Source: Candidatus Nanoarchaeia archaeon (GTDB lineage: Archaea > Nanobdellota > Nanobdellia > WJKC01). From it: 64,000 bases of DNA. The notes under the pieces were generated by a model. That model was not told the DNA's origin and did no database searches. It saw only the letters and a list, made by a program, of their open reading frames with translations. Shown here piece after piece: positions 3,900 to 59,059 of the stretch. How positions within the stretch are numbered: position 1 is the stretch's first letter; each line of letters begins with the position of its first letter. The translations under genes and the position numbers were made by a program. The stretch is from assembly GCA_041653515.1 (NCBI GenBank), contig JBAZFG010000004.1:6568-70567 (forward strand). Direction: 5' to 3'.

Positions 3900-4939
3900 A
3901 AAAATCATTAATAGCAATAATGGGCTTACTATTAATCTGTGGTTGCTTAGGTAATAATACTACGAGTACTGAAACTAAAATACAATCAACGCAAGGTATT
4001 GGCGTGCTAGAGTTCAAAGCAGTGGTTGATGACATGATAGCAAGCACTTACAATTACTTATTATTATCCATTAGGAATAACGCTGAAGGCAGTAGTGCTA
4101 AAAATATTATGGTCAGCCTTGAGAATGTTGAGCCATTCATGATTTATGAATGCAACCAAGAGCACGCGCCTAATGAGAAAAGAACTTCAGTCTGCAATCA
4201 ATTCTTTGATGATGTTGGCGAAGCTTACCGAACGCATAAAATTAATAATATGTTACCTGATGAAGAGATTCAATTCTTCTGGAATATTAGGGCGCCAACT
4301 GAGCAAGAAATAGTTAACTTAGCTTATGACCAGACAATTTATTACTCAATGAGTTATGATTATACCACGACAGTTACTCAAACAATTGCAGGTATCAGCC
4401 AAGCAGAGTACTTAGAGCGCAGTAAGGAAGGAGCAGTAACACTATCAGGCCAAACAATTAGTAGTCCAGGTGAAGTGAAAATAGAGAGCAAGACTCAGCA
4501 ACCAATAATATACACAGAAGGCAGTAGTATCCCACTGGATTTCACGCTTCAATTTGAATTAGATAATGTTGGAACAGGCGTGCCAAAACCAGGGAGCACA
4601 ATAATAGTGGCAGTTAAGAGTGATGAGTCAACCAGTGTTAATGAAGAATTAGCGCGCAGGGCTGGTTGGTTGCAGTATAGTGAAATACAATCAGCTTTTG
4701 ACGCTAAGTTCCCGTTAATTGAATTCGAGGAATTAACATCAACAATTAGAGAAGGCTTATGGATTACTAGTATTGATAGTAGTTTGATTAGGAGCAGTAG
4801 TTATTCGTTAATATTACCTGTGCAATTTAATACAGGAAATGTTTATGAACCACAAAAGATTTTAACCTTTAGTGCTTATATTTCATACACGTATTTAAAA
4901 GAAGGAAGCACCAGCATAAGTGTTTACCCAGTAGAGTGA
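3896..4939 (+). CDS. Putative lipoprotein or surface protein (lipobox-like LLLICGC), hypothetical
   Basis: N-terminus MKKSLIAIMGLLLICGCLGNNTT, with a signal peptide and Cys lipobox. Contains the CARDB-like motif FTLQFELDNVGTGVP. Confidence 0.6.
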   Translation: MKKSLIAIMGLLLICGCLGNNTTSTETKIQSTQGIGVLEFKAVVDDMIASTYNYLLLSIRNNAEGSSAKNIMVSLENVEPFMIYECNQEHAPNEKRTSVCNQFFDDVGEAYRTHKINNMLPDEEIQFFWNIRAPTEQEIVNLAYDQTIYYSMSYDYTTTVTQTIAGISQAEYLERSKEGAVTLSGQTISSPGEVKIESKTQQPIIYTEGSSIPLDFTLQFELDNVGTGVPKPGSTIIVAVKSDESTSVNEELARRAGWLQYSEIQSAFDAKFPLIEFEELTSTIREGLWITSIDSSLIRSSSYSLILPVQFNTGNVYEPQKILTFSAYISYTYLKEGSTSISVYPVE

Positions 4940-4944
4940 TTTGA

Positions 4945-5937
4945 GTGATAGACAACAAAACAATAAAAATAGCAACAATTGGGATGATAATACTACTTGC
5001 AGGTTGCACTGGAGAAGAAATAAACTCTGGAACAGGAATAACATTGAAAAACGAATTAAGCACTGAGTTAATGCAGCCAGGCGGCAGCGTTCTATTAAGA
5101 ACTAGCATTAATAATTTTTTTGACAGAGAATTAATTAATGCTCAAGCAAAATTAACAAGGAGTTTTGGTGAACTTGAAGCTAATCCATCAGACACAGCTT
5201 TTGTTGGAACAGTTCAGGCTAACCCTAACGCTACTGCCAGAACCCAATGGACTTTAGATGTTAGCGAGACTGCTAGCAGTGGCACTGAGTTCACTAATAA
5301 GATAAGACTTTGTTTTAATTACAATCAAACTTCTTGGCATGAGATAGTTTTGGTTAATAGTTTTGAAACAGAATCAGAAGTGAATAGTGGCGAGGATTCA
5401 GGCCCGTTAAAGATTAGTTTTGCAGGCATTGACACACCGTTCCCGTATAACGAGCAGATTAAGAGCCAAATACCAATTACAGTCAGTATTAAGAATGATT
5501 ATACTGGTTTTGTTGGTCGCTTAGGTTTATCAAGAGATGAGATACCTAACATTACTTACATTGAAATGAGGTTCTATGATAAGGATGGCGGCCCAGGATT
5601 AGGATATGTTTCTAATGGCTCGCCTTTTGGTGCTAACTTAAAGGAAGGAACTAATTTTGAAATAATCAAACAGTTCACTAATCCTTCATGCGATAAGAAA
5701 ACCAGTGGTTGCATGAATTGTGATAACAGTTTATGGGATGAAACTAATGGTTATTTCAAGTGTTATGCACAGAACATATCAGTGTTTGGTGACGAAACGT
5801 TTATTGGAACTAAATTAAATGTTACTAAGCTTGATGTTGAGGAGTTAATTGAGAAAGTTGAAGTGCTCATTTCATATGATTATTGCATTGAGAGTGAAGA
5901 CTTCATGATAACAGTGTTCACACCTGGTGGTAGGTAA
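4945..5937 (+). CDS. Putative lipoprotein or surface protein, hypothetical
   Basis: N-terminus IGMIILLAGCTGEE lipobox. Contains ITVSIKNDYTGFVG CARDB-like motif and sequons. Confidence 0.6.
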   Translation: MIDNKTIKIATIGMIILLAGCTGEEINSGTGITLKNELSTELMQPGGSVLLRTSINNFFDRELINAQAKLTRSFGELEANPSDTAFVGTVQANPNATARTQWTLDVSETASSGTEFTNKIRLCFNYNQTSWHEIVLVNSFETESEVNSGEDSGPLKISFAGIDTPFPYNEQIKSQIPITVSIKNDYTGFVGRLGLSRDEIPNITYIEMRFYDKDGGPGLGYVSNGSPFGANLKEGTNFEIIKQFTNPSCDKKTSGCMNCDNSLWDETNGYFKCYAQNISVFGDETFIGTKLNVTKLDVEELIEKVEVLISYDYCIESEDFMITVFTPGGR

Positions 5938-6926
5938 TGAAATCCTACTTCTTATTTTTTATTTTATTTTTATCAACACTAATAATGGGTTGCACAGGTT
6001 CTGAAGAACAAGTTTATGAGGGTAATGGTTTAGTAATCACTAATTTTACCAGCACTTTTAACACTTTAAGGGTTAATGAAGCCACTAACCTAAAATTAGT
6101 GATGCTTAATAATGGTGATTTTGAAGCGTGGAATATTACTTCAATTCTTTATGGTGAGGGCTTAATGACACGTGAGAATGAGAATAATTTTACTTATAGT
6201 ATTTTATCTGATAAACAAGAATTACAATTCTGGACATTAAGGGTTCCATTAAAATTAAGTCAAACTGAGTCAACGAGTTATACTATTAGTTCAAGAATGT
6301 ATTATTACTATAATTTTTCTGGTTTCCAACAAATTGGTTTTGTAGCCCCAACTTATGTTGGCGCTGACTTGCCTTTATCAAGCAGCACTAGTAAGTCACC
6401 ATTAAAGGTATCCATACAATCAAGGAATCCTATTAGGACCCTGCCTGATGAGGAGTCATTATTCTCAATAACTATTACTATTATTAATATTGGTGAGGGC
6501 AGTATTAATTATATTGATTGTATTGGCAACCCTAATTGTCGCAAGAAATCATATATTAATGATTTAAGAATTTCAGTGCCTGCTACTTGGACGCCAGTGA
6601 CTGACCTTAGTGCTTGGAGTAATGAAGTTTCGGGTGATGATATTGTTTATTCAATTAATTTTGGTGAATTAGATGATAATTATTATGAAGTGCTTAATTG
6701 TGATGAAACAAGTTATGATGAAACACCTGCTTGTTATCCTTTAAGTGAAGCACTTAATAGTTTGCGTATGGTTAGGGATGAGGAAGCGCGAATAGTATTG
6801 CAATTCCAAATTGATGAGGTTACTGAAACACTCATTGATTCAGTTAAGGTTAATGGAAACTTTGGTTATAACGTGGATGTTAGTGATTTCAAGAACCCAA
6901 TAACATTACTAGTGCTGGGTGATTAA
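5937..6926 (+). CDS. Putative lipoprotein or surface protein, hypothetical
   Basis: N-terminus FILFLSTLIMGCTGSEE lipobox. Contains LKLVMLNNGDFEAWNI and ITIINIGEGSINY motifs. ATG overlaps the upstream stop. Confidence 0.6.
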   Translation: MKSYFLFFILFLSTLIMGCTGSEEQVYEGNGLVITNFTSTFNTLRVNEATNLKLVMLNNGDFEAWNITSILYGEGLMTRENENNFTYSILSDKQELQFWTLRVPLKLSQTESTSYTISSRMYYYYNFSGFQQIGFVAPTYVGADLPLSSSTSKSPLKVSIQSRNPIRTLPDEESLFSITITIINIGEGSINYIDCIGNPNCRKKSYINDLRISVPATWTPVTDLSAWSNEVSGDDIVYSINFGELDDNYYEVLNCDETSYDETPACYPLSEALNSLRMVRDEEARIVLQFQIDEVTETLIDSVKVNGNFGYNVDVSDFKNPITLLVLGD

Positions 6927-6947
6927 ACTCTTTTTATATGAAAAGAA

Positions 6948-7020
6948 ACTTTGGTTTCCCAATAAACGCTCTTTTCAAAAAAAAGGAAGAGGTGTAGAGA
7001 GGGGAAAACTTTGGTTTCCC
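6948..7020. repeat. Two direct copies of GAAAACTTTGGTTTCCC, each holding the small hairpin GAAAC-TTTG-GTTTC, between convergent genes. Possible bidirectional terminator pair.
   Basis: gaaactttggtttccc at 6948-6963 and gaaaactttggtttcccc at 7002-7020. Confidence 0.4.
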
Positions 7021-7023
7021 CTT

Positions 7024-7785
7024 CTAACCAATGTAACATTGTCTAATAGTATTATTATCTGCTAAGCCTGCCAGTCTTGATTCTTCTTTTAATTCTTCTT
7101 CATAACTCTTGATTTCATCATCTAATTCATCAAAGTCAAGCTTGAAGCCGAGGTATTTGGTGATTACGGTTAATATCTTCTTGGCTTCTTTAACCCCAAC
7201 GTGTTGTGATTGATTAATGGTTTCAGCTAGTAATGAGAAAGCATTAATTTCTTCGAGGCTAGCAATACCTAATAATAAGCCTGCCGCGCCAAGCACTATC
7301 TTAACTGTCTCGTTGCCATCAAAAATAACGTCCAAGCCATTAAGTGATTCCTTAATTGATTCATTATTAATTATCACATGAACCCTTGGCTCGTCTGGTG
7401 GTTCAGGTAATCCAATACCACCAAGCGTGACTAATTCACTAACCCCTAATTCCTTGGCCAACTCAATGATTTTCTTACAAAGAGCATAACTCTCGCTGTC
7501 ACCTGTTGGTTGAATATCTCCTGAGACTAATAATAAATCTCTACCATTGATTTTTGTGTGATAAAACTCAATGCTAAACATCTTAATAGTTGAGTCATCA
7601 TTAATCGTCACTGAATTAGGGAATACATCTGAGAATAACTCAATTATTTTTCGCGCCTTAAGTTTATTAACTAAGTAATCAATGCTGGCGCGCGCAACGT
7701 TACCAATGCCTGGCAAGCCTTCAATCATTATGGGGTTAATCATCTTAACGGTCTCAAATTTTTTAACTACGAATTCAGTCACCAC
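7024..7785 (-). CDS. PAC2-family protein (proteasome assembly chaperone-like, COG1938)
   Basis: N-terminal MIEGLPGIGNVARASIDYLV matches the G-x-PG-x-G signature of archaeal PAC2 proteins. Sits where COG1938 usually follows aIF2alpha in archaea. Confidence 0.55.
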   Translation of the reverse strand: MVTEFVVKKFETVKMINPIMIEGLPGIGNVARASIDYLVNKLKARKIIELFSDVFPNSVTINDDSTIKMFSIEFYHTKINGRDLLLVSGDIQPTGDSESYALCKKIIELAKELGVSELVTLGGIGLPEPPDEPRVHVIINNESIKESLNGLDVIFDGNETVKIVLGAAGLLLGIASLEEINAFSLLAETINQSQHVGVKEAKKILTVITKYLGFKLDFDELDDEIKSYEEELKEESRLAGLADNNTIRQCYIG

Positions 7786-15831: not shown

Positions 15832-15920
15832 TCAAAGAAAATGATTAGAAAAGAATATAAACTAATTAACAATAGTTAATTAATTATGATTTTACCACAA
15901 GAACTAGAAGTCTTCCCGAA

Positions 15921-15971
15921 CCGCAGGGGGGACACCCCCCTTCAGTTCATGGCATCTCCTGATTCCCCCCG
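15921..15971 (+). repeat. 51-bp GC-rich palindromic core element, copy 1 (CCGCAGGGGGGACACCCCCCTTCAGTTCATGGCATCTCCTGATTCCCCCCG)
   Basis: Identical to copies at 16022-16072 and 57921-57971. GGGGGG-ACA-CCCCCC hairpin plus a second CCCCCC tract. Confidence 0.9.
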
Positions 15972-16021
15972 AAAACGAGGCGACCAATGATTCTTCCACA
16001 AGAACTAGAAGTCTTCCCGAA

Positions 16022-16072
16022 CCGCAGGGGGGACACCCCCCTTCAGTTCATGGCATCTCCTGATTCCCCCCG
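16022..16072 (+). repeat. 51-bp GC-rich palindromic core element, copy 2
   Basis: Identical to 15921-15971. Confidence 0.9.
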
Positions 16073-16087
16073 AAAACGAGGCGACCA

Positions 16088-16441
16088 ATGATTCTTCCAC
16101 AAGAACTAGAAGTCTTCTATGTCATCCCCGCAATCAGGCGGGAACTAGCCCTATCCCTTAGCAAAAAAGGCTTTAAACAAAAAAAGATTGCCCAGATTTT
16201 CGGGGTCACTGAAGCCTGCATCAGCAATTACTTCAAATCAAAAAGAGCTAACGAAGTCAAATTCAACGTTAAAATAATCAAATTAATCAATGATTGTGCT
16301 GAAAAACTATCAAAAGGACAAACTTGTTTCATTAACGTTGTCCAAAAAGTTTGCAAAGAATTCAAGAATAGCGAGTGTTTATGCGCTCTTCACGAAAAAC
16401 TTGACGAGCACGTCTGTAAATGCAGGGGGTGCTTAGAATGA
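16088..16441 (+). CDS. HTH transcriptional regulator with C-terminal Cys cluster, upstream of iscSU (possible Fe-S responsive regulator)
   Basis: HTH-like KKIAQIFGVTEACISNYF. C-terminal CLCALHEKLDEHVCKCRGC. Stop overlaps the iscS ATG (ATGA). GAGG RBS 8 nt upstream of the ATG. Confidence 0.45.
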   Translation: MILPQELEVFYVIPAIRRELALSLSKKGFKQKKIAQIFGVTEACISNYFKSKRANEVKFNVKIIKLINDCAEKLSKGQTCFINVVQKVCKEFKNSECLCALHEKLDEHVCKCRGCLE

Positions 16442-18602: not shown

Positions 18603-19550
18603 ATGGGTAAAACTCAGTTTGTCAGAGTTGATAAAGACTCTCTTAAAAAGATTGCCCAGTTCCAAAAAGAGTTAAATCAAAATAGTGTTATTATTGGCAG
18701 TTACTCACTTGGTATTCACGTCCTAAAAAATAAGAATAATATTAATGAAAAATTTGAGTTTGGCAAAGAAGAAAGTTATGAAACATTAGAAAAGTTAAGC
18801 GATTTAATTGGAAACATCTTAAACGAAATCAACAGAAGCAAAGGCAAGCTTACTAAGAATATTAAAAACTCAATTAATGATATTAATGAAAAATTACCTG
18901 CTAATTGGCAGTCTAAAGACCTTAATAAAAATTCATTATCACTAATAAAAAACGAATTAGATGAATTAAAGAGCGACCTCAAGGATTATAATAAAAACCT
19001 TAAGACTTTAAAAAACTCAAAAGAAGGTGATAAAATCAAGGATTATATTCTTGATAAACTATCTGACATTGACCTCATTGTAGAAAAACCAACAGACGCT
19101 GCTAAAAAAGTTAAAGAACATATCTGGCACAAAGAAGGCGCTTTATTACACCTTAATTATTACGGCATGCCAGTTGGGTTCTTACTAACAAGCGATGAAT
19201 TCACTAGAATTGAACTAGATAATTATGTTGAATATGAATTAAAAGAATTTGGCATTAATTCAAATGGTCGCATTCGCGTCACCACACCAGAAGGTTTTAT
19301 TGGTTCAAAACTATTCATTAACACCCTTGAATTAAAGGATTATCTTAACATTGGTGTTGCGCTTAGATTAATTGCTAACAAGAAAATACCCTTTAACAAA
19401 GAATTGTTCATAAAATTAATTAAGAACTCAAGAGGGGCGAGCAGCCCAAAAAGAGCTTATAGGATTTATTTAAGGATACTAAAAATTTTTAATATAAACA
19501 AAGACCCACTTGACTTTAAAGCGGTTATGAAATCATTAGGCATTAAGTAA
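18603..19550 (+). CDS. Hypothetical coiled-coil protein
   Basis: 315-aa ORF with long K/E/N-rich helical segments. Confidence 0.4.
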   Translation: MGKTQFVRVDKDSLKKIAQFQKELNQNSVIIGSYSLGIHVLKNKNNINEKFEFGKEESYETLEKLSDLIGNILNEINRSKGKLTKNIKNSINDINEKLPANWQSKDLNKNSLSLIKNELDELKSDLKDYNKNLKTLKNSKEGDKIKDYILDKLSDIDLIVEKPTDAAKKVKEHIWHKEGALLHLNYYGMPVGFLLTSDEFTRIELDNYVEYELKEFGINSNGRIRVTTPEGFIGSKLFINTLELKDYLNIGVALRLIANKKIPFNKELFIKLIKNSRGASSPKRAYRIYLRILKIFNINKDPLDFKAVMKSLGIK

Positions 19551-28043: not shown

Positions 28044-28157
28044 GCTTCGGTAGCTCAGAGGTAGTAGCGCTGCTCCGGTACGCTCACTTCGTTTATGTAA
28101 TAACGAGAGTTGAGCCTAGAAAGGCAGAGGTCGTGGGTCCAATTCCCATCCGAAGCT
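28044..28157 (+). tRNA. tRNA with 41-nt canonical 37/38 intron. Anticodon probably GGT (Thr).
   Basis: Acceptor GCTTCGG/CCGAAGC. D-arm GCTC..TAGC. Anticodon stem CTGCT/GGCAG (28070-74 / 28123-27). Loop CCGGTA|A, exon1 ends at 28080, intron 28081-28121. T-arm GTGGG-TCCAATT-CCCAT. Discriminator T28157. C33 is unusual, so anticodon identity is tentative. Confidence 0.65.
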
Positions 28158-31254: not shown

Positions 31255-32685
31255 ATGCGAAAAACAATCCTATTAATAGCTTTTATTCTAATGGCTGGGG
31301 TAACAAGCGCGGTTAGTTATGAAGTCACTGGGGTTAAAACAAGAGTATACCCTGAGGAGAGTCTTATTTACAGGATAAACATAATTAACAATGACTCGGT
31401 TAGCAAAGAGGTTTACATTAACAAGTATATGGTGGAGAACACTTTTGGTATGGCTAGCAGTGTTAGGCCGTCAATTAACCTTGTTTTATCACCTAATAGT
31501 TCAACAATCATTAATGTCACAATTCCAGTTAGTAATAGTGTTACTAAAGGGACTTACAGCACGCCATTATTATTCTCTTACGGCAATACCACCACGGACA
31601 GGGTTTATCTTGAATCAGTTATTCTTAGTAAGGTATTAGAACCAATTGAATTGCAAAACATTACGGTCATTAACCCTGAGAGCATTATTCCAGTTCATGA
31701 GTTTAACACAACAGTCACGCTCTTATGCAACATTGAGTCAGTTTACCCGTTAGTTAAAATAACTGTTAGTGATGATAATGGAATTATTTATGAGTCTAGC
31801 AGTGTTCAGGAATTAAAAGAAGGTATTAATGTGTTCAGGCGCAGCGTTAAATTACCTGACCGAACAATGCCTGGCACTTACACTTTATTAGTTGAAGCTA
31901 GTGTTTCGGGCAGGGTTATTACTCAGGGGGTGGGTGATTTAGTAATTAATCCCTACACTTACATTAATTATTCAGCTGGGGTTTATGAGGACTTGTTTGG
32001 TAAACGAGTTAATCGCACTGCGGATAACCTTGGTACTGAAATAATTAACACTAGTGTTAATTACACTACTTCGTTATTAGAGCCATTATTAATTAATCGA
32101 ATATTATTATTAATTAAGAAAGATGGTAATATTATTAGTTCAACTACACCTGTTATTAGTGATTACTTAATTAATGAATTAGTCACGCTTGAATCAGGTG
32201 AGTCAGCTGAATTAATCATTGAGTTTGGTTATGGCTTATTAATTGCAATCCCATTTGTTATTATCTTAGTGATTATTGGTTGGTTCTTCGTGACTAAGCG
32301 AGTAATTGTTAAGAAAGAAATAATTGAATGCCATAAGGATGGTAATGAATTAACCGTTAAGGTTGGAGTTAGTGTTAAGAACGTTTCACTTAGCAGTATT
32401 AATAATGTTAAAATTATTGAGGATTTGCCTGTTTACGCTAAGAAAGCAGGCGCTTTTGGCAGTATTAAGGGTGATATTGACCGCAAGAAAGGTATTATTA
32501 CTTTCCTGCCAGGCCGGCTTGACCCTAAAGAAGAAGTATTATTATCTTATAAATTCAAGACTGATATTGAGTTAGTTGGCAGGGTCTCGTTGCCGCCAGC
32601 CACAGTTAAGTTCAGGGTTGATGATAAAGTAATGATTGTTAAGAGTAATACTACTGGCATTGAATTAATTAAAGGCGGAGAGTAA
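31255..32685 (+). CDS. Secreted surface protein with C-terminal transmembrane anchor, hypothetical
   Basis: Signal peptide MRKTILLIAFILMAGVTSA. Beta-rich body with sequons. Hydrophobic segment LLIAIPFVIILVIIGWFFV near aa 320. Confidence 0.5.
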   Translation: MRKTILLIAFILMAGVTSAVSYEVTGVKTRVYPEESLIYRINIINNDSVSKEVYINKYMVENTFGMASSVRPSINLVLSPNSSTIINVTIPVSNSVTKGTYSTPLLFSYGNTTTDRVYLESVILSKVLEPIELQNITVINPESIIPVHEFNTTVTLLCNIESVYPLVKITVSDDNGIIYESSSVQELKEGINVFRRSVKLPDRTMPGTYTLLVEASVSGRVITQGVGDLVINPYTYINYSAGVYEDLFGKRVNRTADNLGTEIINTSVNYTTSLLEPLLINRILLLIKKDGNIISSTTPVISDYLINELVTLESGESAELIIEFGYGLLIAIPFVIILVIIGWFFVTKRVIVKKEIIECHKDGNELTVKVGVSVKNVSLSSINNVKIIEDLPVYAKKAGAFGSIKGDIDRKKGIITFLPGRLDPKEEVLLSYKFKTDIELVGRVSLPPATVKFRVDDKVMIVKSNTTGIELIKGGE

Positions 32686-32838
32686 AAACAATCTATTCTT
32701 TCATCTTTACATCCAATCTTAGCTCAATAAACCCTTTTCTCGCTTCGCTCCAAAAGTATTTCATCCCAAAATTAATGCGCTTAGTAATCTTTTTAAAACA
32801 ATCTATTCTTTCATCTTTGTATCCCGTCTTAGCTCAAT
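32685..32838 (+). repeat. 44-bp direct repeat x2 (110 bp apart) duplicating the tRNA-Tyr upstream region and the first ~16 nt of the tRNA
   Basis: aaaacaatctattctttcatctttacatccaatcttagctcaat (32685-32728) versus aaaacaatctattctttcatctttgtatcccgtcttagctcaat (32795-32838). Confidence 0.8.
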
Positions 32839-32958
32839 GGTAGAGCGCATGGCTGTAGACCAATACTGGATTCAAAATATTCTCGTGTTGGGGAAAAGCG
32901 TGCATTGAGCAGGCATTCAGATACCATGAGGTTCCCGGTTCAAATCCGGGAGACGGGA
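32823..32958 (+). tRNA. tRNA-Tyr (GTA) with 64-nt intron at 37/38
   Basis: C1:G72 acceptor CCCGTCT/AGACGGG, which is the archaeal Tyr identity. D-arm GCTC-AATGGTA-GAGC. Anticodon stem CATGG/CCATG. Anticodon GTA at 32855-57. Intron 32859-32922. T-arm CCCGG-TTCAAAT-CCGGG. Discriminator A32958. No encoded CCA. Confidence 0.8.
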
Positions 32959-33050
32959 CATTCTTATTCCTCCTGGTTCAAACTCTCGAGTGAAACGAGA
33001 GAGTGCCTGAGCGAGCGATAGCGAGTGCAGAGCATCCGGGAGACGGGACA
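32944..33050 (+). repeat. tRNA-Tyr 3'-end duplication flanking a structured insert (element A)
   Basis: 17-bp direct repeat ATCCGGGAGACGGGACA at 32944-32960 and 33034-33050. Insert 32961-33033 = CATTCTTATTCCT + CCTGGTTCAAAC (T-arm mimic) + hairpin CTCTCG-AGTGAAA-CGAGAG + GTGCCTGAGCGAGCGATAGCGAGTGCAGAGCA. Confidence 0.8.
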
Positions 33051-33059
33051 CTTTTTTTT

Positions 33060-36126: not shown

Positions 36127-37371
36127 GTGAACAAGTTTTATTCGTTAATCTTTATAGTATTACTAGCTGGTTGTATCAAAGTTAATACACAAAGTAATGC
36201 CTGCACGCCTAACTGGCAGTGCACTGATTGGATTAACTGCCTACAAGGCAATCAGAATCGGACTTGCACTGATATTAATGATTGTAATAATAACATGAGC
36301 AAGCCTGATTTAACTAAAAAATGTGATGAACAATCTTGTAATTCTTACAAGCCAAACGTGGTTTATAACATGGCTTTCGTTTTGTTCAGCAGTCCTGACA
36401 GCAGTCCTGCATCAAGTGAAGAATTAAGCAGATTAAATGAATCAATAATCCTTGCTCAAGATAAGTGGAATGAAATAACTCCTGGGCTTAGCTTAAGAAT
36501 AAAATTGTACTTGATTAATGTTTCACGGTTCGCAACAACAGAGCCAATTCGTGCTGTAAATACTTTTTATGATTATTATCCTCTGGAAAACCAGAATTAT
36601 GACGCAATAGCTTTTATGGATACTTGGACTAACAATGATTATTACTGTAGCAGTAATAATTTCCTTAAGGATGATGTGGACACTCTTTTCGGCATTAATA
36701 ATTGCAGTTTAAGACAGGTTATTTTCCTAACAAGTATACATAACCCTTGCAGTGCTATTAATAATTTAGATGCTTATCAAATTGCTACTATTATAATTCA
36801 TGAAACAACTCATCACTGGGCAGTGCAATTACCAGTTGTTTTCTTAGATGGTAACTCAAGTGACACTTCATCACCAGCAAGCCTCTTAGATTCTTACAAA
36901 GTTCACTGGAGTGATTATGTTAACTCCTCGTTTGACCCGTTGGGTGGTAATTTATTTGAATTAAATAATAGCACTTTTACTGTGGTTGCTCACTCCTTGC
37001 GCTTAATCTGGCCTAATGAAAATGATTCTAAATACACTTTTGATAACATGAAGAGACTTGACTTAGAGTTATTCATGATGGGGTTAAAGACTAGAGAGGA
37101 AGTTAGTAATGTAAGATTAATGACTAATTGCAATAATTATATATGTTCATCATACCATGATTTCAGCGTGGATGATATCCTGCCTATAAATATGGCAACA
37201 ATAACCCCTAGCCTTCCGGGAGACACTGATGGGGATGGAATTTATACGTGGGCTGAGCTTGAAGGAACACTTGGTTACAAGTCTGACCCCTTTAATAAGG
37301 ACACTAACCAAAATGGGATTGATGACTTAAGTGAAATACTCAATGGACAAAACCCATTGTTATGTCAATAA
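36127..37371 (+). CDS. Lipoprotein, putative secreted zinc metalloprotease (HExxH) with N-terminal 6-Cys module and C-terminal Ca-binding-like D-rich repeats
   Basis: Lipobox LLAGC. CTPNWQCTDWINC...RTCTDINDCNNN. IIIHETTHHW (HExxH). DTDGDGIYTW..DTNQNGIDD. Confidence 0.5.
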   Translation: MNKFYSLIFIVLLAGCIKVNTQSNACTPNWQCTDWINCLQGNQNRTCTDINDCNNNMSKPDLTKKCDEQSCNSYKPNVVYNMAFVLFSSPDSSPASSEELSRLNESIILAQDKWNEITPGLSLRIKLYLINVSRFATTEPIRAVNTFYDYYPLENQNYDAIAFMDTWTNNDYYCSSNNFLKDDVDTLFGINNCSLRQVIFLTSIHNPCSAINNLDAYQIATIIIHETTHHWAVQLPVVFLDGNSSDTSSPASLLDSYKVHWSDYVNSSFDPLGGNLFELNNSTFTVVAHSLRLIWPNENDSKYTFDNMKRLDLELFMMGLKTREEVSNVRLMTNCNNYICSSYHDFSVDDILPINMATITPSLPGDTDGDGIYTWAELEGTLGYKSDPFNKDTNQNGIDDLSEILNGQNPLLCQ

Positions 37372-38444: not shown

Positions 38445-39701
38445 GTGTTTAAGGGTTATTTATTAGCAGGGACTTTATTATTAATAGTATTAATCGCTGG
38501 TTGTGCTACTAACACGCCAGCAGTGACTAATTGTAATGATTATTGTTTATTAGAATCACATGAATCTTGCGATGGTGAATGGAGTATTAGTGGTGAGTAC
38601 CCTAATTGCACTTGTGGTTGGGTTTGTGATGATACTTGCACGCCTGACTGGAGTTGCACTGAATGGAATGATTGTAACGTAACTAATTTACAGACAAAGC
38701 ATTGTATTGACTTAAATGAATGCGGGATTAACACAAACAAACCAGCTGAGTCGCAAGCTTGCACTTTCATTAATTTTTGTGATTCAATCAGCAGCGCTAA
38801 CCTGAAAGCTAATTGCAACGCGTTCTTGTACAATGATGTTAGTAAGTGCCCAACTGAATCAACCACTTTTTATGAGAACTGTGCTTATGATTTGGCAAAG
38901 ATTACTTTTAATATCACTGTTTGTGATTCAATCAACACTACTTACACTAGGAATGTTTGTAAAGCAATAGTTAAGAATAACTTGGCTTATTGTAATATTC
39001 TTATACCAATAAACAGGACTCAATGTTATGAAGATGTTTACGCGTTCCTTAATTATCGGGCTAGTTTTGAGAATAATTCTTATTATTGTGGTTTAATAAT
39101 TAACACAACTCTTTACCCTAATTGCGCTAACCAACCAACAAGGAATACTTACTTGAATCATTATAGTAATTACAGTATTTGTGAGCGCTACTTCTTTGAT
39201 TATAACAGCACTGATTATCAGAGCATCTTTGCTTGTTATTCTTATCATGTTAAAACAGATAACACTAAAACTGTTTGTGAAAGCATAAAGAACATTGTTA
39301 ATATGACTGACTTATTCTATGATGAGTGCATAGCACTAGCGGATAATAATATTACTTATTGTTATGATTTTAATGGAACCCTTAGGGATCGTTGCTTGGC
39401 TAATTTTGCTTATTTACGAAACGACACTGATATTTGTCGCGACGCGTCTAATCGTGATAATTGTAATCAAATTGTTTGCGGTGAATTTGGCTACATTAAT
39501 TTCTGCGATATGTTAACTACTACTGTCACGCGCAACGTTGAGGTTTATAATTTAGCTATTGCTTGCTTATCAAATAACTGGGCTTCATGTAACATGGGTT
39601 ATTGTGATTTATTAACCGACCAAGTGTTAAAGGATTCATGTATTTACTATATTTATCGTTATGAGAAAATGCTTGGTTATAATTACAGAAATTATATTTG
39701 A
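38445..39701 (+). CDS. Cysteine-rich lipoprotein, paralogous N-terminal module to the 36127 gene product
   Basis: Lipobox LIAGC. Shared module CTPDWSCTEWNDCNVTNLQTKHCIDLNECGINTNKP. More than 50 Cys overall. Confidence 0.5.
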   Translation: MFKGYLLAGTLLLIVLIAGCATNTPAVTNCNDYCLLESHESCDGEWSISGEYPNCTCGWVCDDTCTPDWSCTEWNDCNVTNLQTKHCIDLNECGINTNKPAESQACTFINFCDSISSANLKANCNAFLYNDVSKCPTESTTFYENCAYDLAKITFNITVCDSINTTYTRNVCKAIVKNNLAYCNILIPINRTQCYEDVYAFLNYRASFENNSYYCGLIINTTLYPNCANQPTRNTYLNHYSNYSICERYFFDYNSTDYQSIFACYSYHVKTDNTKTVCESIKNIVNMTDLFYDECIALADNNITYCYDFNGTLRDRCLANFAYLRNDTDICRDASNRDNCNQIVCGEFGYINFCDMLTTTVTRNVEVYNLAIACLSNNWASCNMGYCDLLTDQVLKDSCIYYIYRYEKMLGYNYRNYI

Positions 39702-39744: not shown

Positions 39745-39817
39745 GCTTCGGTAGTCTAGTGGTCTAGGATCTCGGACTGTCGATCCGGGGACCCGGGTTC
39801 AAATCCCGGCCGGAGCG
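39745..39817 (+). tRNA. tRNA-Asp (GTC), no intron
   Basis: Acceptor GCTTCGG/CCGGAGC. D-arm GTCT-AGTGGTCTA-GGAT. Anticodon stem TCGGA/TCCGG with loop CTGTCGA. T-arm CCGGG-TTCAAAT-CCCGG. Discriminator G. 73 nt. Confidence 0.85.
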
Positions 39818-39880
39818 GTTAAAACAAGCGACGGCAGGGGCCTGGAATTTATTCCAGTGCACCGGCCGAAGCGATTATCT

Positions 39881-40446: not shown

Positions 40447-40586
40447 GGGCCCGTAACTCAGTCTGGTTAGAGTACTTGGCTTTTACGTCGCTACGCTCCT
40501 CCGTCCTTACGGACGGACGCTCGCTTGCTAAAACAAGCGGTGACGAGGATACCAAGGAGTCGCGGGTTCGAATCCCGTCGGGCTCA
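40447..40586 (+). tRNA. tRNA-Lys (TTT) with 65-nt GC-rich intron at 37/38
   Basis: Acceptor GGGCCCG/CGGGCTC (G2:U71). D-arm ACTC..GAGT. Anticodon stem CTTGG/CCAAG. Loop CTTTTA|A. Intron 40486-40550. T-arm GCGGG-TTCGAAT-CCCGT. Discriminator A40586. Confidence 0.75.
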
Positions 40587-40747
40587 CATCCTCAAGGAGG
40601 GGGACTCCCCCTCCTTTAGAGATAATTCTCCCCCGATAAGTTGCGCCAAAGGCGCTAACCAATAAGTGGGTTCAAACCAACGGAGCTCTGCGAAGTTAGT
40701 GCCTGAACGAGCGAATAACAAAGTTCAGAGCATCCCGTCGGGCTCAC
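40572..40747 (+). repeat. tRNA-Lys 3'-end duplication flanking a 144-bp structured insert (element C)
   Basis: 16-bp direct repeat ATCCCGTCGGGCTCAC at 40572-40587 and 40732-40747. Insert includes the perfect 23-nt palindrome AAGGAGGGGGA-C-TCCCCCTCCTT (40594-40616), the T-arm mimic GTGGGTTCAAACC, and the conserved arm GTGCCTGAACGAGCGA...CAGAGCA. Confidence 0.8.
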
Positions 40748-50937: not shown

Positions 50938-51621
50938 ATGGTTAAGAAATCTTTATTGCTGAAAGCAAAGGAAATTGAGGATAAGAAGATTGTTAAGAAA
51001 GGCGAGGAAGTCTTGATTGATTTTAGTGATATTAAATTGTTTGATAAGTGGGATACTAATAATATTGAGGTTAAGGATGAGGGTTTGAAGCGTTATATTA
51101 ATCTTAAACCAGTAATCGTGCCTAAGACTCATGGTCGTAACCAAAAGACTCGTTTCTGGAAGAGTAAACAACATATTGTTGAGCGATTAATGAATCATGT
51201 GCCTGTTAGTGGTCATAAGGGCAAGAAGCATTATTGGAGTAGTGCTGAGCAGATTGGTGAGGGTCATACTATTTTTATGGTTATGATTAAGGCTTTAACT
51301 GAGATTGAGCGTAAGACTAAAATAAACCCTGTTGAAGTGATTGTTCGGGCGATTGAGAAGTCTTCACCGCGCGAGGAAGTCACAACAGTTCAGTATGGTG
51401 GTATTAAGCATCCTAAAGCAGTTGATTGCGCGCCTCAGCGAAGGGTTGATTTAGCGCTTCGTTGGATGAGTCAGGGCGCTTTCCAAGCGAGCAATAAGGG
51501 TAAACGTCGTATTTGGAGCACTTTATCTGATGAGATTATTGCTGCTTACAATAATGACCGTAAGAGTTTAGCTATTAGTAAGAAATTTGAGACTGAACGA
51601 CAAGCTGCTGCCAGCAGGTAA
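50938..51621 (+). CDS. rps7: Ribosomal protein S7 (uS7)
   Basis: 227-aa uS7/eS5-type sequence, in the canonical S12-S7 order. Confidence 0.9.
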   Translation: MVKKSLLLKAKEIEDKKIVKKGEEVLIDFSDIKLFDKWDTNNIEVKDEGLKRYINLKPVIVPKTHGRNQKTRFWKSKQHIVERLMNHVPVSGHKGKKHYWSSAEQIGEGHTIFMVMIKALTEIERKTKINPVEVIVRAIEKSSPREEVTTVQYGGIKHPKAVDCAPQRRVDLALRWMSQGAFQASNKGKRRIWSTLSDEIIAAYNNDRKSLAISKKFETERQAAASR

Positions 51622-51714
51622 AATTGATTTTTTCTAATAATTAATATTATTCTTTGGGGTGAAGCCCTTTCTTTTTAAGAAAGGGTTTCTTTGAGACTGA
51701 ACGACAAGCTGCTG
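51589..51714 (+). repeat. rps7 3'-end duplication: 22-nt direct repeat flanking a hairpin-bearing insert
   Basis: GAGACTGAACGACAAGCTGCTG at 51589-51610 (the live end, ..GCCAGCAGGTAA) and at 51693-51714 (ghost, ..GTATCAAGATAA = ETERQAAVSR*). Between them lies the hairpin GAAGCCCTTTCTT-TTTAAG-AAAGGGTTTCTT (51661-51692). Confidence 0.8.
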
Positions 51715-51736
51715 TATCAAGATAAAAAAAGATTAA

Positions 51737-56810: not shown

Positions 56811-57122
56811 ATGAGTTCGAAAGCCCGAATTAAATTAAGTAGCACTGAACCTGAAGCACTTAATAGTATTTGCGAGCAAATTAAGGGCATTACTAGTCGG
56901 ACTGGGGTTGACATTAAAGGACCAGTGCCATTGCCGACTAAGAAGATTCGAATGGCTACTAGGCGTGCTATTAGTGGTGAGGGCAGGGAAACTTATGAGA
57001 GTTGGGAGTTAAGGATTCACAAGCGATTAATTGATATCCCAATGGATGAGCGCGCGTTAAGGCTGATAATGAGGATTGCCATCCCTAAGAGCGTTAACAT
57101 GGAAATGGAAATTACTGAGTAA
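56811..57122 (+). CDS. rps10: Ribosomal protein S10 (uS10)
   Basis: ARIKLSSTEPEALNSICEQIKGITSRTGVDIKGPVPLPTKKIRMATRRA. Confidence 0.85.
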   Translation: MSSKARIKLSSTEPEALNSICEQIKGITSRTGVDIKGPVPLPTKKIRMATRRAISGEGRETYESWELRIHKRLIDIPMDERALRLIMRIAIPKSVNMEMEITE

Positions 57123-57250
57123 AATATTTAATATTTAGTTCTTTTGGTCAAGGTTTTCTTGCTAAGAAAAGCTTGTTGGAAATGGAAATTACTGAGTAAA
57201 ATATTTAGTTCTTTTGGTCAAGGTTTTCTTGCTAAGAAAAGCTTGTTGGA
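57101..57250 (+). repeat. Tandem duplication (~73-77 bp x2) of the rps10 3' end (last 6 codons + stop) and its 3'UTR hairpin
   Basis: ggaaatggaaattactgagtaaaatattta[atattta]gttcttttggtcaaggttttcttgctaagaaaagcttgttgga at 57101-57180, and again without the 7-bp extra at 57178-57250. Contains the stem GGTTTTCTT-GCT-AAGAAAAGC. Confidence 0.85.
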
Positions 57251-57262
57251 ATAAAATAATTC

Positions 57263-57898
57263 TTAACGGTGCTTATACCTGCCTCTTGATTCAACAGTTA
57301 GTAATCGTTTAATTACTTCCCTGCCAATAGGGTAATGTTTCTCGTAAGCTTTTTTGAATAACTTCCATGCTTTATGGTAAACATTATAGTGACGGCTCAT
57401 CAAAGCTTGTTTTAGAACATGCAAGTCAACTGCTCTTGACTCAACTTTATCACTAACCTCGCTTAAACCAAAATCAATAATGAATAATTCACCCTCTTTT
57501 AGCAGCATATTACTTGTTGTTAAGTCGCCGTGAATAATATTATTAACATGCAATAAAGCCACTAAACGACCAACTTCTTTCATAACATTAAGATTATTAT
57601 CAAGCACATCACGCAGGACTGGCGCGTCAATGAAATCCATCGTGATTGAGTAATCAGTCACGCCGCGAACTCTTGGCACATTAATTAGTTTACCAGCCCG
57701 CTCCAGTAACCGCGCCTCGGCCTTAGTTCGCTGGCGACGCAACATTAAATCAAGCTCTTTAATACGATAAGACTTTTTCACCCGCGCCTTAATTAAAGTT
57801 GAACCATCACGCCATAACTTACTCTCAGCCCCTTGCGCAATAATCTGGCGCTTATTGCTCTTCGCTTCGCTCAGCCGCTCTTTATTATTTAACGCCAC
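57263..57898 (-). CDS. bud32: Bud32/PRPK-like protein kinase (KEOPS)
   Basis: RQIIAQGAESKLW, IIHGDLTTSNMLL, IIDFGLS. GTG start at 57898 with GAGGTGA SD 7 nt upstream. Adjacent to kae1. Confidence 0.75.
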   Translation of the reverse strand: MALNNKERLSEAKSNKRQIIAQGAESKLWRDGSTLIKARVKKSYRIKELDLMLRRQRTKAEARLLERAGKLINVPRVRGVTDYSITMDFIDAPVLRDVLDNNLNVMKEVGRLVALLHVNNIIHGDLTTSNMLLKEGELFIIDFGLSEVSDKVESRAVDLHVLKQALMSRHYNVYHKAWKLFKKAYEKHYPIGREVIKRLLTVESRGRYKHR

Positions 57899-58069
57899 TT
57901 AACTATCACCTCATCCCAAACCGCAGGGGGGACACCCCCCTTCAGTTCATGGCATCTCCTGATTCCCCCCGCAAAAACTAACGCCACTTAACTATCACCT
58001 CATCCAAACTTTTCCGCTCCGCGCAAAACCTTGACCAAAAAACTAACGCCACTTAACTATCACCTCATC
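57891..58069. repeat. Three direct copies of a 25-32-bp segment (kae1 3' end + bud32 RBS/start) separated by two different short inserts
   Basis: AACGCCACTTAACTATCACCTCATC at 57891-57915, 57980-58004 and 58045-58069. Spacer 1 contains the 51-bp GC-rich core. Spacer 2 = CAAACTTTTCCGCTCCGCGCAAAACCTTGACCAAAAAACT. Confidence 0.9.
57921..57971 (+). repeat. 51-bp GC-rich palindromic core element, copy 3
   Basis: Identical to 15921-15971 and in the same orientation. Confidence 0.9.
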
Positions 58070-59005
58070 TGTTCTTTCACTTTGATTAATATCAATTCTT
58101 GACTTAACCCCTGACTCATACATCTTCAAGCCCAACAAACCAATCATCGCGCCATTATCAACACAATACTCCATCGGTGGCGCGCTAAACTTAGCGCCAC
58201 GCTCATCACACATAATCTTACACATCTCACGCAAGCGCTTATTAGATGCCACGCCGCCAGTTAGAATTAACTCATTCTTCTGACAATGAGCAAGGGCTCG
58301 CTCAGACACTTCAATCAGCATTGCAAAAACAGTCTCTTGTAACGAATAACACAAATCATCAAGCTTATGGTCTTTTAGTTTCTGACGCAAGTTAGTTAAG
58401 ATGCCAGTTAAGCTCACATCCATACCCTTAACAACGTAAGGCAGTGGAATGTACTTGCCCTTCAAGGCTTTCTGCTCGATTACTGGACCACCTGGAAAAG
58501 GAATGCCAGCGTAACGAGCAAAAGAGTCAATAAAATTACCCACACCCATATCAAGTGTTTCAGCAAACACACGATAACGACCACCCTGATAAGCAATAAC
58601 TTGAGTGTTAGCCCCACTAGTGTATAATACAACCGGGTCATTAAAGCCAGTAAGCTGTCGTGCGACCTCAACATGCGCAATACAATGATTAACACCTATT
58701 AGTGGGATTTTTAATGATTGAGCCAGCGTCTGAGCAGCTACTAAGCCAACGCGCAGTGAATGGCCAATGCCCGGTGCCCGGCTAAAAGCAATCAAGTTAA
58801 TATCACTGTAATCAATGCTTGCCTTACGCACAGCAGCATTGATGATGTCAGCAGCCCTAGAAGCAATGAAATCACTAGCTTCTCGAGGATGAATACCACC
58901 ACTAACAGGATGATAAGTCTCCTTAACATTAGATAAAATCTTACCATCAAATACTACTCCAACACCAAACGTATGAGCAGTTGACTCAATACCAAGACAA
59001 ATCAT
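58043..59005 (-). CDS. kae1: Kae1/TsaD N6-threonylcarbamoyladenosine synthase (KEOPS)
   Basis: MICLGIESTAHTFGVGVV, HCIAHVE and GGVASN. Start set at the internal Met. Last codons DEVIVKWR* lie within the repeated segment. Confidence 0.85.
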   Translation of the reverse strand: MICLGIESTAHTFGVGVVFDGKILSNVKETYHPVSGGIHPREASDFIASRAADIINAAVRKASIDYSDINLIAFSRAPGIGHSLRVGLVAAQTLAQSLKIPLIGVNHCIAHVEVARQLTGFNDPVVLYTSGANTQVIAYQGGRYRVFAETLDMGVGNFIDSFARYAGIPFPGGPVIEQKALKGKYIPLPYVVKGMDVSLTGILTNLRQKLKDHKLDDLCYSLQETVFAMLIEVSERALAHCQKNELILTGGVASNKRLREMCKIMCDERGAKFSAPPMEYCVDNGAMIGLLGLKMYESGVKSRIDINQSERTDEVIVKWR

Positions 59006-59059
59006 TAAAAGTAAAATAAACAATTGAGTTTATAAATATGTAACTCTGAACAAGTCAAT

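Follow-up and report, generated by a model that had tools for sequence, protein, structure and literature searches.

Three direct copies of a 26-nt segment, here called T, lie between the genes kae1 and bud32 in a 64,000-nt stretch of contig JBAZFG010000004.1 from a Candidatus Nanoarchaeia archaeon (in the following called the window), with two different short inserts, E2 and E1, between the copies. Both genes are left intact because the gene end is duplicated around the insert. This triplicated state is derived, both inserts belong to element families present at more than one locus, and a relay of small open reading frames (ORFs) runs unbroken from one gene to the other. The explanation we favour, to which we give about as much belief as doubt, is that non-autonomous hairpin elements mobilised in trans insert with a long target duplication, and that only the events that rebuild a gene end survive selection.

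Structure of the kae1/bud32 junction

The window is archaeal, has a GC content of about 36% and carries genes for EF-2, EF-1a, S10, S7 and RNA polymerase together with intron-bearing tRNAs. On its minus strand, kae1 is directly followed by bud32; the Pfam matches and the synteny in two of the loci fetched from relatives (L082 and L086) identify them as the KEOPS gene pair. The identical Kae1 protein is present in the NCBI metagenome-assembled genome (MFA5406398.1), in JGI/IMG and in the Logan assembly of SRR18595300. Exact-protein look-ups of bud32, the product of the gene at 16088, the cysteine desulfurase neighbour and mini-ORF a returned no record. Read along the minus strand, the junction consists of the following parts:

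58043 to 59005, minus strand: kae1, 320 aa counted from an ATG, with the ORF open up to a TTG at 59023; Pfam TsaD PF00814 (8e-78)
58044 to 58069, minus strand: copy c of T, the real kae1 end (DEVIVKWR), its TAG stop completed by the first base of E2 (58043)
58005 to 58043, minus strand: insert E2, 39 nt, AT-rich, a T-run and then an imperfect hairpin with its 3′ arm directly against copy b; GTTTTTTGGTCAAGGTTTTGCGCGGAGCGGAAAAGTTTG
57979 to 58004, minus strand: copy b of T, which terminates mini-ORF b and starts mini-ORF a
57916 to 57978, minus strand: insert E1, 63 nt, 60% GC, with an exact 51-nt core at 57921–57971 and the hairpin GAACTGAAGGGGGGTGTCCCCCCTGCGGTT near its 3′ end beside copy a
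57890 to 57915, minus strand: copy a of T, continuous with bud32 (Shine-Dalgarno (SD) sequence GAGGTGAT, GTG at 57898–57896) and with the ancestral TAA in the kae1 frame
57263 to 57898, minus strand: bud32, 211 aa, GTG start; Pfam RIO/Pkinase-type kinase

T (plus-strand core TAACGCCACTTAACTATCACCTCATC, minus-strand GATGAGGTGATAGTTAAGTGGCGTTA) comprises the last eight kae1 codons through the TA of the stop codon and, in the other frame, the SD-like GAGGTGAT and the bud32 GTG. Copies b and c are identical across 32 nt, and copy a diverges in the 6–8 nt beyond the 26-nt core. After T, copies c and b continue with G TTTTT, that is, a TAG stop and then a T-run, and copy a continues with AATAAT, which holds the TAA and the bud32 reading frame. 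By our own estimate, exact 13-mers repeated within 260 nt are expected only about 0.2 times per 64 kb, so a triple of 26–32 nt cannot be due to chance. Removal of both inserts and two T copies gives back an intact kae1/bud32 junction, and the joints between inserts and T copies at this locus show no microhomology.

An earlier note on this DNA (in the following the original prediction) had described a segment occurring three times in direct orientation, with copy c closing kae1 (DEVIVKWR and stop) and copy a opening bud32 with SD and GTG. Both statements hold, at 57890–57915, 57979–58004 and 58044–58069, and some details change. Each copy does read as a kae1 end, but copy a ends in TAA, not TAG. 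With the 26-nt core, the inserts measure 39 nt, where 38 had been given, and 63 nt, the latter holding the 51-nt core. This core had been called GC-rich, palindromic and also present at 15921; it is exact there but only partly palindromic.

A single overlapping junction in relatives

The closer syntenic contigs (L082–L088) came from the protein database. In L082 (79% Kae1 identity) there is a single junction, ACATGGCGTTGAAGCGGCTGAGC, at which kae1 (..TWR, stop TGA) overlaps the bud32 start ATGGCGTTG, and the Bud32 N-terminus MALKRLSKAKS matches the MALNNKERLSEAKS of the window. L086-88 (75% Kae1 identity) likewise have a single junction, TGGCGATGA, with a 4-nt overlap. The single overlapping copy expected by the original prediction is thus found in the two closest retrieved lineages. 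Because the closest retrievable relatives have this single overlapping junction, the triplication is derived; comparison of the junction sequences shows the overlap as the predicted ancestral state and the triplication as specific to the lineage of the window.

The third group, L083-85 (77% Kae1 identity), has a 40-nt spacer between kae1 and bud32. The 30 nt that precede the bud32 ATG in this group can be aligned with the 3′ end of kae1 at a score of 24, above 99% of shuffles (14 ± 2.7; p ~0.008; L083 10935–11010, equivalent to L084 1735–1810), which suggests that the spacer may be an older, decayed duplication of the same junction. The near-identical relatives within L083/84/85 and within L086/87/88 show no presence/absence polymorphism, their contigs simply ending at repeats.

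A Kae1 scan of species-representative (GTDB) genomes and JGI metagenome contigs yielded identities of at most 60%, apart from one contig with 67% and one with 75%. These distant relatives are all Woesearchaeota/Nanoarchaeia-type DPANN, and in most of them bud32 does not lie beside kae1. The further statement of the original prediction, that the two genes are otherwise fused or overlapping, is therefore right for the overlap in L082 and L086-88 but too general, as most Woesearchaeota-type loci lack the adjacency and L083-85 have the 40-nt spacer.

Both inserts belong to element families

The further copies of the inserts for which the original prediction had proposed a search do exist, for E1 at 15921 and 16022 and for the E2 family at the S10 end. 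The 51-nt GC core of E1 occurs exactly at 15921, 16022 and 57921, with 0 occurrences expected by chance, and folds with a 7-bp G/C stem within a longer imperfect hairpin. Its two copies away from kae1 form a second locus:

15886 to 16117, plus strand: second E1 locus, the first 30 nt of the gene 16088–16441 at 15886, 15987 and 16088, with two identical 71-nt inserts (E1 plus GAGGCGACCA)

This array is made of two identical 101-nt units, and its outer copy differs by a synonymous Leu codon (inner GAGGCGACCA ATG ATT CTT versus outer TTAATTAATT ATG ATT TTA). E1 is 100% identical over 53 nt at the two loci, and the duplicated gene ends that flank it (26 nt and 30 nt) are unrelated. At 63–71 nt, non-coding and with three occurrences at two loci, E1 has the small, multi-locus character of MITE-like elements (MITE, miniature inverted-repeat transposable element). 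The two E1 target segments (57880–57915 and 15880–15915) are somewhat alike (TTATTATTTAACGCCAC... versus TTATGATTTTACCAC...), both ending in TC(A/T)TC just before E1; this likeness may reflect a target preference or chance in AT-rich DNA.

The 39-nt insert is also a family member, which goes beyond the original prediction. In E2, an imperfect inverted repeat of 9 nt makes up the arms of the hairpin, and a related hairpin lies close by:

57100 to 57251, plus strand: second E2 locus, in which 31 nt of the S10 3′ end, stop codon included, and a 39-nt hairpin (E2′) each occur twice with a 70/77-nt period, then TGGAA

E2 and the S10-end hairpin have in common TTTTGGTCAAGGTTTT and AAAAGYTTG (16+8 nt) as well as the exact length of 39 nt. 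The family thus has three occurrences at two loci in the window, and a clear relative follows the S10 end in L084. The hairpin stability of the inserts is unexceptional for their composition (z −0.8 to −2.7).

The same layout at other gene and tRNA ends

The order gene end, insert, gene end also occurs in the window at S10, S7, tRNA-Tyr (on both the 5′ and the 3′ side) and the tRNA at 40447. In this lineage and in further DPANN lineages the layout is widespread at the ends of S10, S7, tRNA and additional genes, and its hairpin families cross targets and genera, a further addition to the original prediction.

At the S7 3′ end (51586 and 51690; region 51586–51727), the two copies share an exact 25-nt core; the inner one reads ..GCTGCTG CC AGC AGG TAA and the outer one ..GCTGCTG TA TCA AGA TAA (Ser AGC versus TCA). 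A hairpin, GAAGCCCTTTCTTTTTAAGAAAGGGTTTC, closes the 79-nt insert and abuts the outer copy. The S7 end in L086 (19761/19931) has 33 nt duplicated exactly around a 137-nt insert, with CGA TAA in the inner versus CGG TGA in the outer copy.

The tRNA-Tyr gene (32823–32958, with a 67-nt intron) is duplicated at both ends, at 32685/32795 and 32944/33034 (region 32685–33058). On its 5′ side, the upstream region and the first 16 nt are duplicated (44 nt, 91%), with changes in the acceptor stem; on its 3′ side, the last 17 nt recur after a 73-nt insert, and a T10 terminator follows the outer copy only. For the tRNA at 40447–40586, the last 16 nt are repeated after a 144-nt insert with the GC hairpin GGAGGGGGACTCCCCCTCC (40572–40747). 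Both tRNA 3′ inserts (33003–33018; 40572–40747) share GGTTCAAAC...GTGCCTGARCGAGCGA...CAGAGC directly ahead of the outer copy and look as though they resemble a T-arm-like piece interrupted in its T-loop. The tRNA-Asp of the window probably carries the same layout.

Outside the window, the layout is found at the S10 ends of L084 and L086, at another gene end in L084 (45-nt duplication, 42-nt GC hairpin) and at tRNA 3′ ends in L021, L024, L030/L049 and L072. At the S10 end of L084, four copies of TTAGAGATGGAGATTACTGAGTAA (LEMEITE and stop) lie downstream of S10 on the minus strand (4190–4560), with E2-like and E4-like hairpins between them, and copies 2 and 3 differ only by synonymous third-position changes and the stop codon. 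This array needs caution, as the scaffold has an N gap there and strain variants could have been mis-joined.

Five hairpin motifs (E1–E5) were located in the fetched loci, about 1.9 Mb in total, and none of their occurrences falls outside such a structure. The E5 family (loop AAAC(C)GTAG(G)TTGC, AAACCGTAGGTTG; covarying stems; conserved 5′ part ATTAAGGRAGGGGTT) has members at the S10 end of L086 and at a tRNA end of L030/L049, and the E4 family (AACGCTTTGCGAA) has members in the L084 S10 array and at a tRNA end of L030:

L030 19260 to 19360, L030 19954 to 20050 and L086 12238 to 12340: E4/E5 hairpin-family sites, from families common to different genera and targets

In a short-motif scan of viral contigs, E5 had 0 matches, and E4 (120+) and E3 (16) gave scattered single matches on unrelated contigs, which are chance-like for 14–15-nt patterns. 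Because all occurrences of E1–E5 in the fetched loci lie in such layouts, with E4 and E5 at different targets and in different genera, they are discrete hairpin-ended units, probably mobile, and not filler. The inserts of all events measure 39–144 nt and have no ORF of their own, and in 11 of the 16 events the strongest hairpin ends 0–2 nt before the next (outer) gene-end copy.

At S7, gene 16088, L086 S7 and L084 S10, clustered coding-preserving differences adjoin a perfectly identical core, so that one of the copies comes from a diverged allele. Recombination with diverged alleles, which the original prediction had not considered, therefore probably contributes to these structures.

A stop/start relay from Kae1 to Bud32

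Two mini-ORFs connect kae1 with bud32, a preserved stop/start relay that goes beyond the original prediction:

57978 to 58052, minus strand: mini-ORF b, 24 codons, (M)ALVFWSRFCAERKSLDEVIVKWR and stop, from the GTG of copy c through E2 to the TAG of copy b
57889 to 57987, minus strand: mini-ORF a, 32 codons, (M)ALVFAGGIRRCHELKGGVPPAVWDEVIVKWR and stop, from the GTG of copy b through E1 to the TAA in copy a, with an overlap on the GTG of bud32

At the gene 16088 locus, two 34-codon ORFs are chained via ATGA overlaps. The repeat spacings of 65 and 89 (kae1/bud32) and of 101 (gene 16088) are all 2 mod 3, and the relay frames are stop-free. A composition-matched random insert in random phase keeps the relay about 15% of the time; its retention at two loci has a chance probability of ~0.02, which is only suggestive as a sign of selection. 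The mini-ORFs stop and start like the ancestral junction, so that ribosomes would be handed on from Kae1 to Bud32 by way of the two inserts, and selection would maintain the relay.

No TATA-like sequence was noticed ahead of bud32, whose expression may, from the look of this region, depend on read-through. A promoter/terminator consensus scan at the array found nothing, a result that says little on archaea since the tool is bacterial in type.

Assembly of the array

Whether the array could be a misassembly had been raised with the original prediction. A metagenome-assembled genome may be suspected of joining strain variants wrongly or of collapsing or expanding a repeat, and in the relative L084, a scaffold, an N gap falls within the S10 array. 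The repeat-insert-repeat units, however, measure 97 and 121 nt with both flanking copies included, below the typical short-read length, and the same layout is present in assemblies from several groups and assemblers. The Logan contig of SRR18595300 ends in ...GGCGTTAGTTT / ...GATGAGGTGATAGTTAAGTGGCGTTAGTTT, exactly where the 31-mer shared by copies c and b begins: assuming k=31, its last 31-mer is unique to copy c and the next one common to copy b. Such a break is expected if the reads hold at least two TAGTTTT-type copies. Other SRR18595300 contigs break 7 nt past the S10 stop and at the 54-nt tandem repeat near 2005 (Logan contig L305), again at repeats. We consider an artefact very unlikely.

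Origin of the array

Under the explanation we favour, a mobilising enzyme supplied in trans would make two nicks about 26 nt apart, and joining of the element and fill-in would then produce the duplication at insertion as an unusually long target-site duplication. A three-copy array would follow from a second hit in one copy or from unequal recombination of two alleles, one with E2 and the other with E1. In a genome nearly without spacer DNA, the only viable insertions would be those that rebuild the upstream stop and the downstream SD and start, which would be why the elements are seen only at gene and tRNA termini. The presence of the same element between duplications of unrelated targets, the families that cross genera and the derived state at kae1/bud32 support this model. 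Similarly, the idea of the original prediction that the overlap was opened twice by terminus-duplicating insertions agrees with the single junctions of the relatives and with the inserts found elsewhere between duplicated gene ends; its "twice" is less firm, as the two events could instead be two alleles stacked by unequal recombination.

Several observations weigh against insertion with target duplication. Both inserts have exactly the same 26-nt T boundaries, which two independent hits would produce only with a cut specific for the site or under strong selection. The duplication length is variable, 12–45 nt over all events and 26–31 nt at the protein genes of the window. A simple target duplication predicts no divergence, yet the outer copies are diverged at S7, gene 16088, L086 S7 and L084 S10; these copies must be explained by added recombination with diverged alleles or by elements that carry their own gene end, and they also fit the passage of an existing T-E-T between lineages by homologous recombination, for which the outer T and the gene body serve as arms. 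The hairpin of E1 is internal, and the element lacks terminal inverted repeats. Scans with E1 28-mers gave no match in viral contigs or JGI metagenome contigs, and a search of 5.8 billion proteins gave no candidate that had words in common with its three open-frame peptides; with no match elsewhere, the mobility of E1 rests on two loci in one genome. A Pfam scan of 34 ORFs of the window found no transposase, integrase, reverse transcriptase or Cas protein, although about a dozen of these ORFs had no match at all and those of 315–476 aa could hide an unrecognised recombinase. Lastly, the relay may not be harmless, because the T5/T6 runs after each TAG at kae1/bud32 could be archaeal terminators, ending transcription ahead of bud32.

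The diverged copies and the shared boundaries would both be accounted for if the elements brought the gene ends with them. A cassette or circle with its own terminus copy would enter by a single crossover, made by a recombinase at the hairpin base or by homologous recombination (Campbell, att-type or introgression), leaving a donor-derived inner copy and a resident outer copy. The clustered coding-preserving differences beside an identical core at the four loci named above are what one would expect from this, as is a hairpin that abuts the outer copy like a recombination site. The tRNA duplications begin in the T-loop, as integrase att sites do, and archaeal tRNA fragments beside recombinase-bearing insertions are documented (PMC3293823). 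A fixed att site or homology arm, however, would need a prior duplicative step to place the same element at unrelated targets (E1 at kae1 and gene 16088, E4 and E5 at tRNA and S10); moreover, the inserts encode nothing at 39–144 nt, the window has no integrase, and the three kae1/bud32 cores, being 100% identical, do not require a foreign donor. We therefore judge element-borne gene ends unlikely, though by no means negligible. Replication errors could do without an enzyme altogether. Hairpins stall polymerases, and slippage duplication or microhomology template switching could copy a hairpin and resume a few dozen nt upstream, followed by unequal crossing-over. Variable duplication lengths would be natural under such errors, and the arrays at S10 in the window (a 70-nt unit duplicated at TGGAA microhomology) and at gene 16088 (two identical 101-nt units) have the appropriate structure. 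At kae1/bud32, however, the ancestor had no hairpin to duplicate, which leaves the arrival of E2 and E1 unexplained, and the missing microhomology at the joints and the recurrence, across targets and genera, of discrete elements whose ends are conserved also make this origin improbable.

Selection might alternatively have kept the array as a device that tunes Kae1:Bud32 expression, with T-runs and hairpins attenuating transcription and the relay setting translational coupling. The relay is intact at two loci, a T5/T6 run follows each TAG, the E1 extension provides an SD-like GAGG ahead of gene 16088, and the S10-end hairpins are conserved between the window and L084. Since the closest relatives manage with a plain overlap, no Rfam family matches, the hairpins are unexceptional in stability and the twofold relay is no more than suggestive, we think such a role quite improbable. 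Ectopic CRISPR adaptation, finally, would have Cas1-Cas2 place two "spacers" into a non-CRISPR site and duplicate a repeat-sized target, creating a neo-CRISPR; Nivala and colleagues reportedly described off-target integration with target duplication in 2018. The repeat-spacer-repeat layout, the 26–32-nt "repeat" and the 65-nt period of one unit recall this process, which is nevertheless hardly credible here: the "spacers" are repeated genomic elements of 39–144 nt, duplications at different loci measure anything between 12 and 45 nt, gene starts and the 5′ ends of tRNAs show this layout as well, and the window has neither a cas gene nor a true CRISPR array.

Other candidate identities were rejected. 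The differences are not adenine-specific, as they would be between the VR and TR of a diversity-generating retroelement; the folds contain no bulge-helix-bulge of an intron; no GTTRRRY core of an integron attC site is present at the element ends; there is no motif and no Rfam match for a hammerhead or other ribozyme; and a C/D-box sRNA was dismissed with an sR55 match of E=0.77. In the Rfam scan of the window, only tRNAs reached the gathering score, and a permissive scan of 57800–58150 gave a best E=0.065, below the threshold.

Comparison with known systems

The kae1/bud32 elements are filed here as a variant of small non-autonomous elements and not as a member of any family compared, because the locus fails a defining feature of each. 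Like prokaryotic MITEs, they are tens of nucleotides long, non-coding and hairpin-forming, occur in several copies per genome at gene boundaries, are flanked by direct target repeats and have no enzyme of their own. Their flanking duplications of 16–45 nt (12–45 nt when all events are counted), in contrast, are not the fixed short ones of MITEs (2–10 nt), E1 has no terminal inverted repeats, and the insertions lie within the last and first codons of essential genes, which are rebuilt by the duplication. Rickettsia palindromic elements are short palindromic selfish elements tolerated in frame in the coding sequence of a reduced genome. They add residues and make no target duplication, whereas here the proteins are unchanged and separate mini-ORFs arise. 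CRISPR arrays share the repeat-spacer-repeat periodicity and 26–32-nt repeats. As the original prediction had already held, this likeness is superficial: the repeats are locus-specific gene ends that are different at every locus, and the "spacers" are repeated hairpin elements (E1 three times, the E2 family at S10). No cas domain and no leader were found at the array, nor was a cas domain found in the scanned ORFs of the window.

In Streptococcus, integrative and conjugative elements (ICEs) and cis-mobilizable elements (CIMEs) accrete, so that non-autonomous elements come to lie between three att copies. The arrays described here resemble integrative elements in their direct repeats of a gene or tRNA end (kae1, S10, S7, tRNA from the T-loop), in three repeats that bracket two different inserts, in an inner copy that restores the gene and in diverged outer copies. 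They differ in having inserts of 39–144 nt without an integrase or kilobase size, and E1, E4 and E5 at unrelated targets depart from the rule of one att target per family. For archaea, a tRNA-fragment model has been put forward in Caldiarchaeum (PMC3293823).

The precedent for our favoured model is IS1634/IS1549, with long, variable direct repeats of 8–514 bp (PMC2266710), and the IS1634 family is reported to be common in Euryarchaeota (PMC2266710). Here, too, the target duplications are long (12–45 nt) and vary from copy to copy. However, those insertion sequences are 1.5–2 kb long with a DDE transposase, a domain that was not found in the window, and the element ends here are hairpin arms and not of the C...YT type. 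The mobile GC clusters of yeast mitochondria are GC hairpins of about 40 nt that occur singly or in tandem in an AT-rich compact genome (PMC4478555), as do the single elements and tandem arrays described here. Their putative target duplication, however, is just 2–3 nt (AG/ACT) (PMC4478555; Weiller et al. 1989 as cited there), and gene termini are not duplicated. The "gene hybrids" of homing endonucleases in fungal mitochondria, as presented in the passage of PMC3787672 that cites Beaudet et al. 2013, arise when an insertion near the 3′ end brings a foreign in-frame terminus and the resident terminus comes to lie downstream. On that description, the pattern resembles S7, gene 16088 and the L084 S10 array; it differs in that the fungal insertions carry an endonuclease ORF, whereas the inserts here have no ORF and the kae1/bud32 copies are identical.

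Put more broadly, DPANN may hold an undescribed class of mobile, terminus-duplicating hairpin micro-elements of 40–140 nt, in families common to different genera. These would insert at essential-gene and tRNA ends by copying or bringing along 16–45 nt of the target; an enzyme at the base of the hairpin, such as an HUH-type or integron-like recombinase, or a transposase with a very long stagger might be responsible. They would spread between lineages by recombination through the duplicated ends, and would offer a general route to the uncoupling of overlapping genes in ultra-compact genomes. We advance this wider view tentatively and would sooner doubt than accept it. Recurrence at S10, S7, tRNA and kae1 ends over several DPANN lineages suggests a specific insertion or recombination mechanism. 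The locus itself is a concrete, testable way for overlapping genes to separate, and it indicates that short selfish elements can persist where there is virtually no intergenic space, even landing in the overlap of two essential co-translated genes. On the practical side, short-read assemblies break at such structures, spurious small ORFs arise from them, and the pseudo-terminal pieces of genes and tRNAs that remain mislead annotation.

Further features of the window

Long introns are present in three of the four tRNA genes of the window (28044–28157, 32823–32958 and 40447–40586, with total lengths of 114–140 nt), and ARAGORN detects only the intron-less tRNA-Asp. In the region 39745–39880, about 46 nt downstream of tRNA-Asp, lies CCGGCCGAAGCG, a near-copy of its 3′ end (CCGGCCGGAGCG; perfect pairing with the 5′ acceptor strand expected).

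ORFs of 315–476 aa without a Pfam match are located at 418–1824, 3896–4939, 4945–5937, 5937–6926, 18603–19550, 31255–32685, 36127–37371 and 38445–39701. A perfect 54-nt tandem repeat (2.1 copies, 2005–2115) lies within the 671-aa ORF 1884–3899. In the convergent intergenic region 6940–7025, AAACTTTGGTTTCCC occurs twice, 60 nt apart; the second copy folds as the hairpin GGGGAAAACTTTGGTTTCCCC, and the pair may represent a duplicated terminator.

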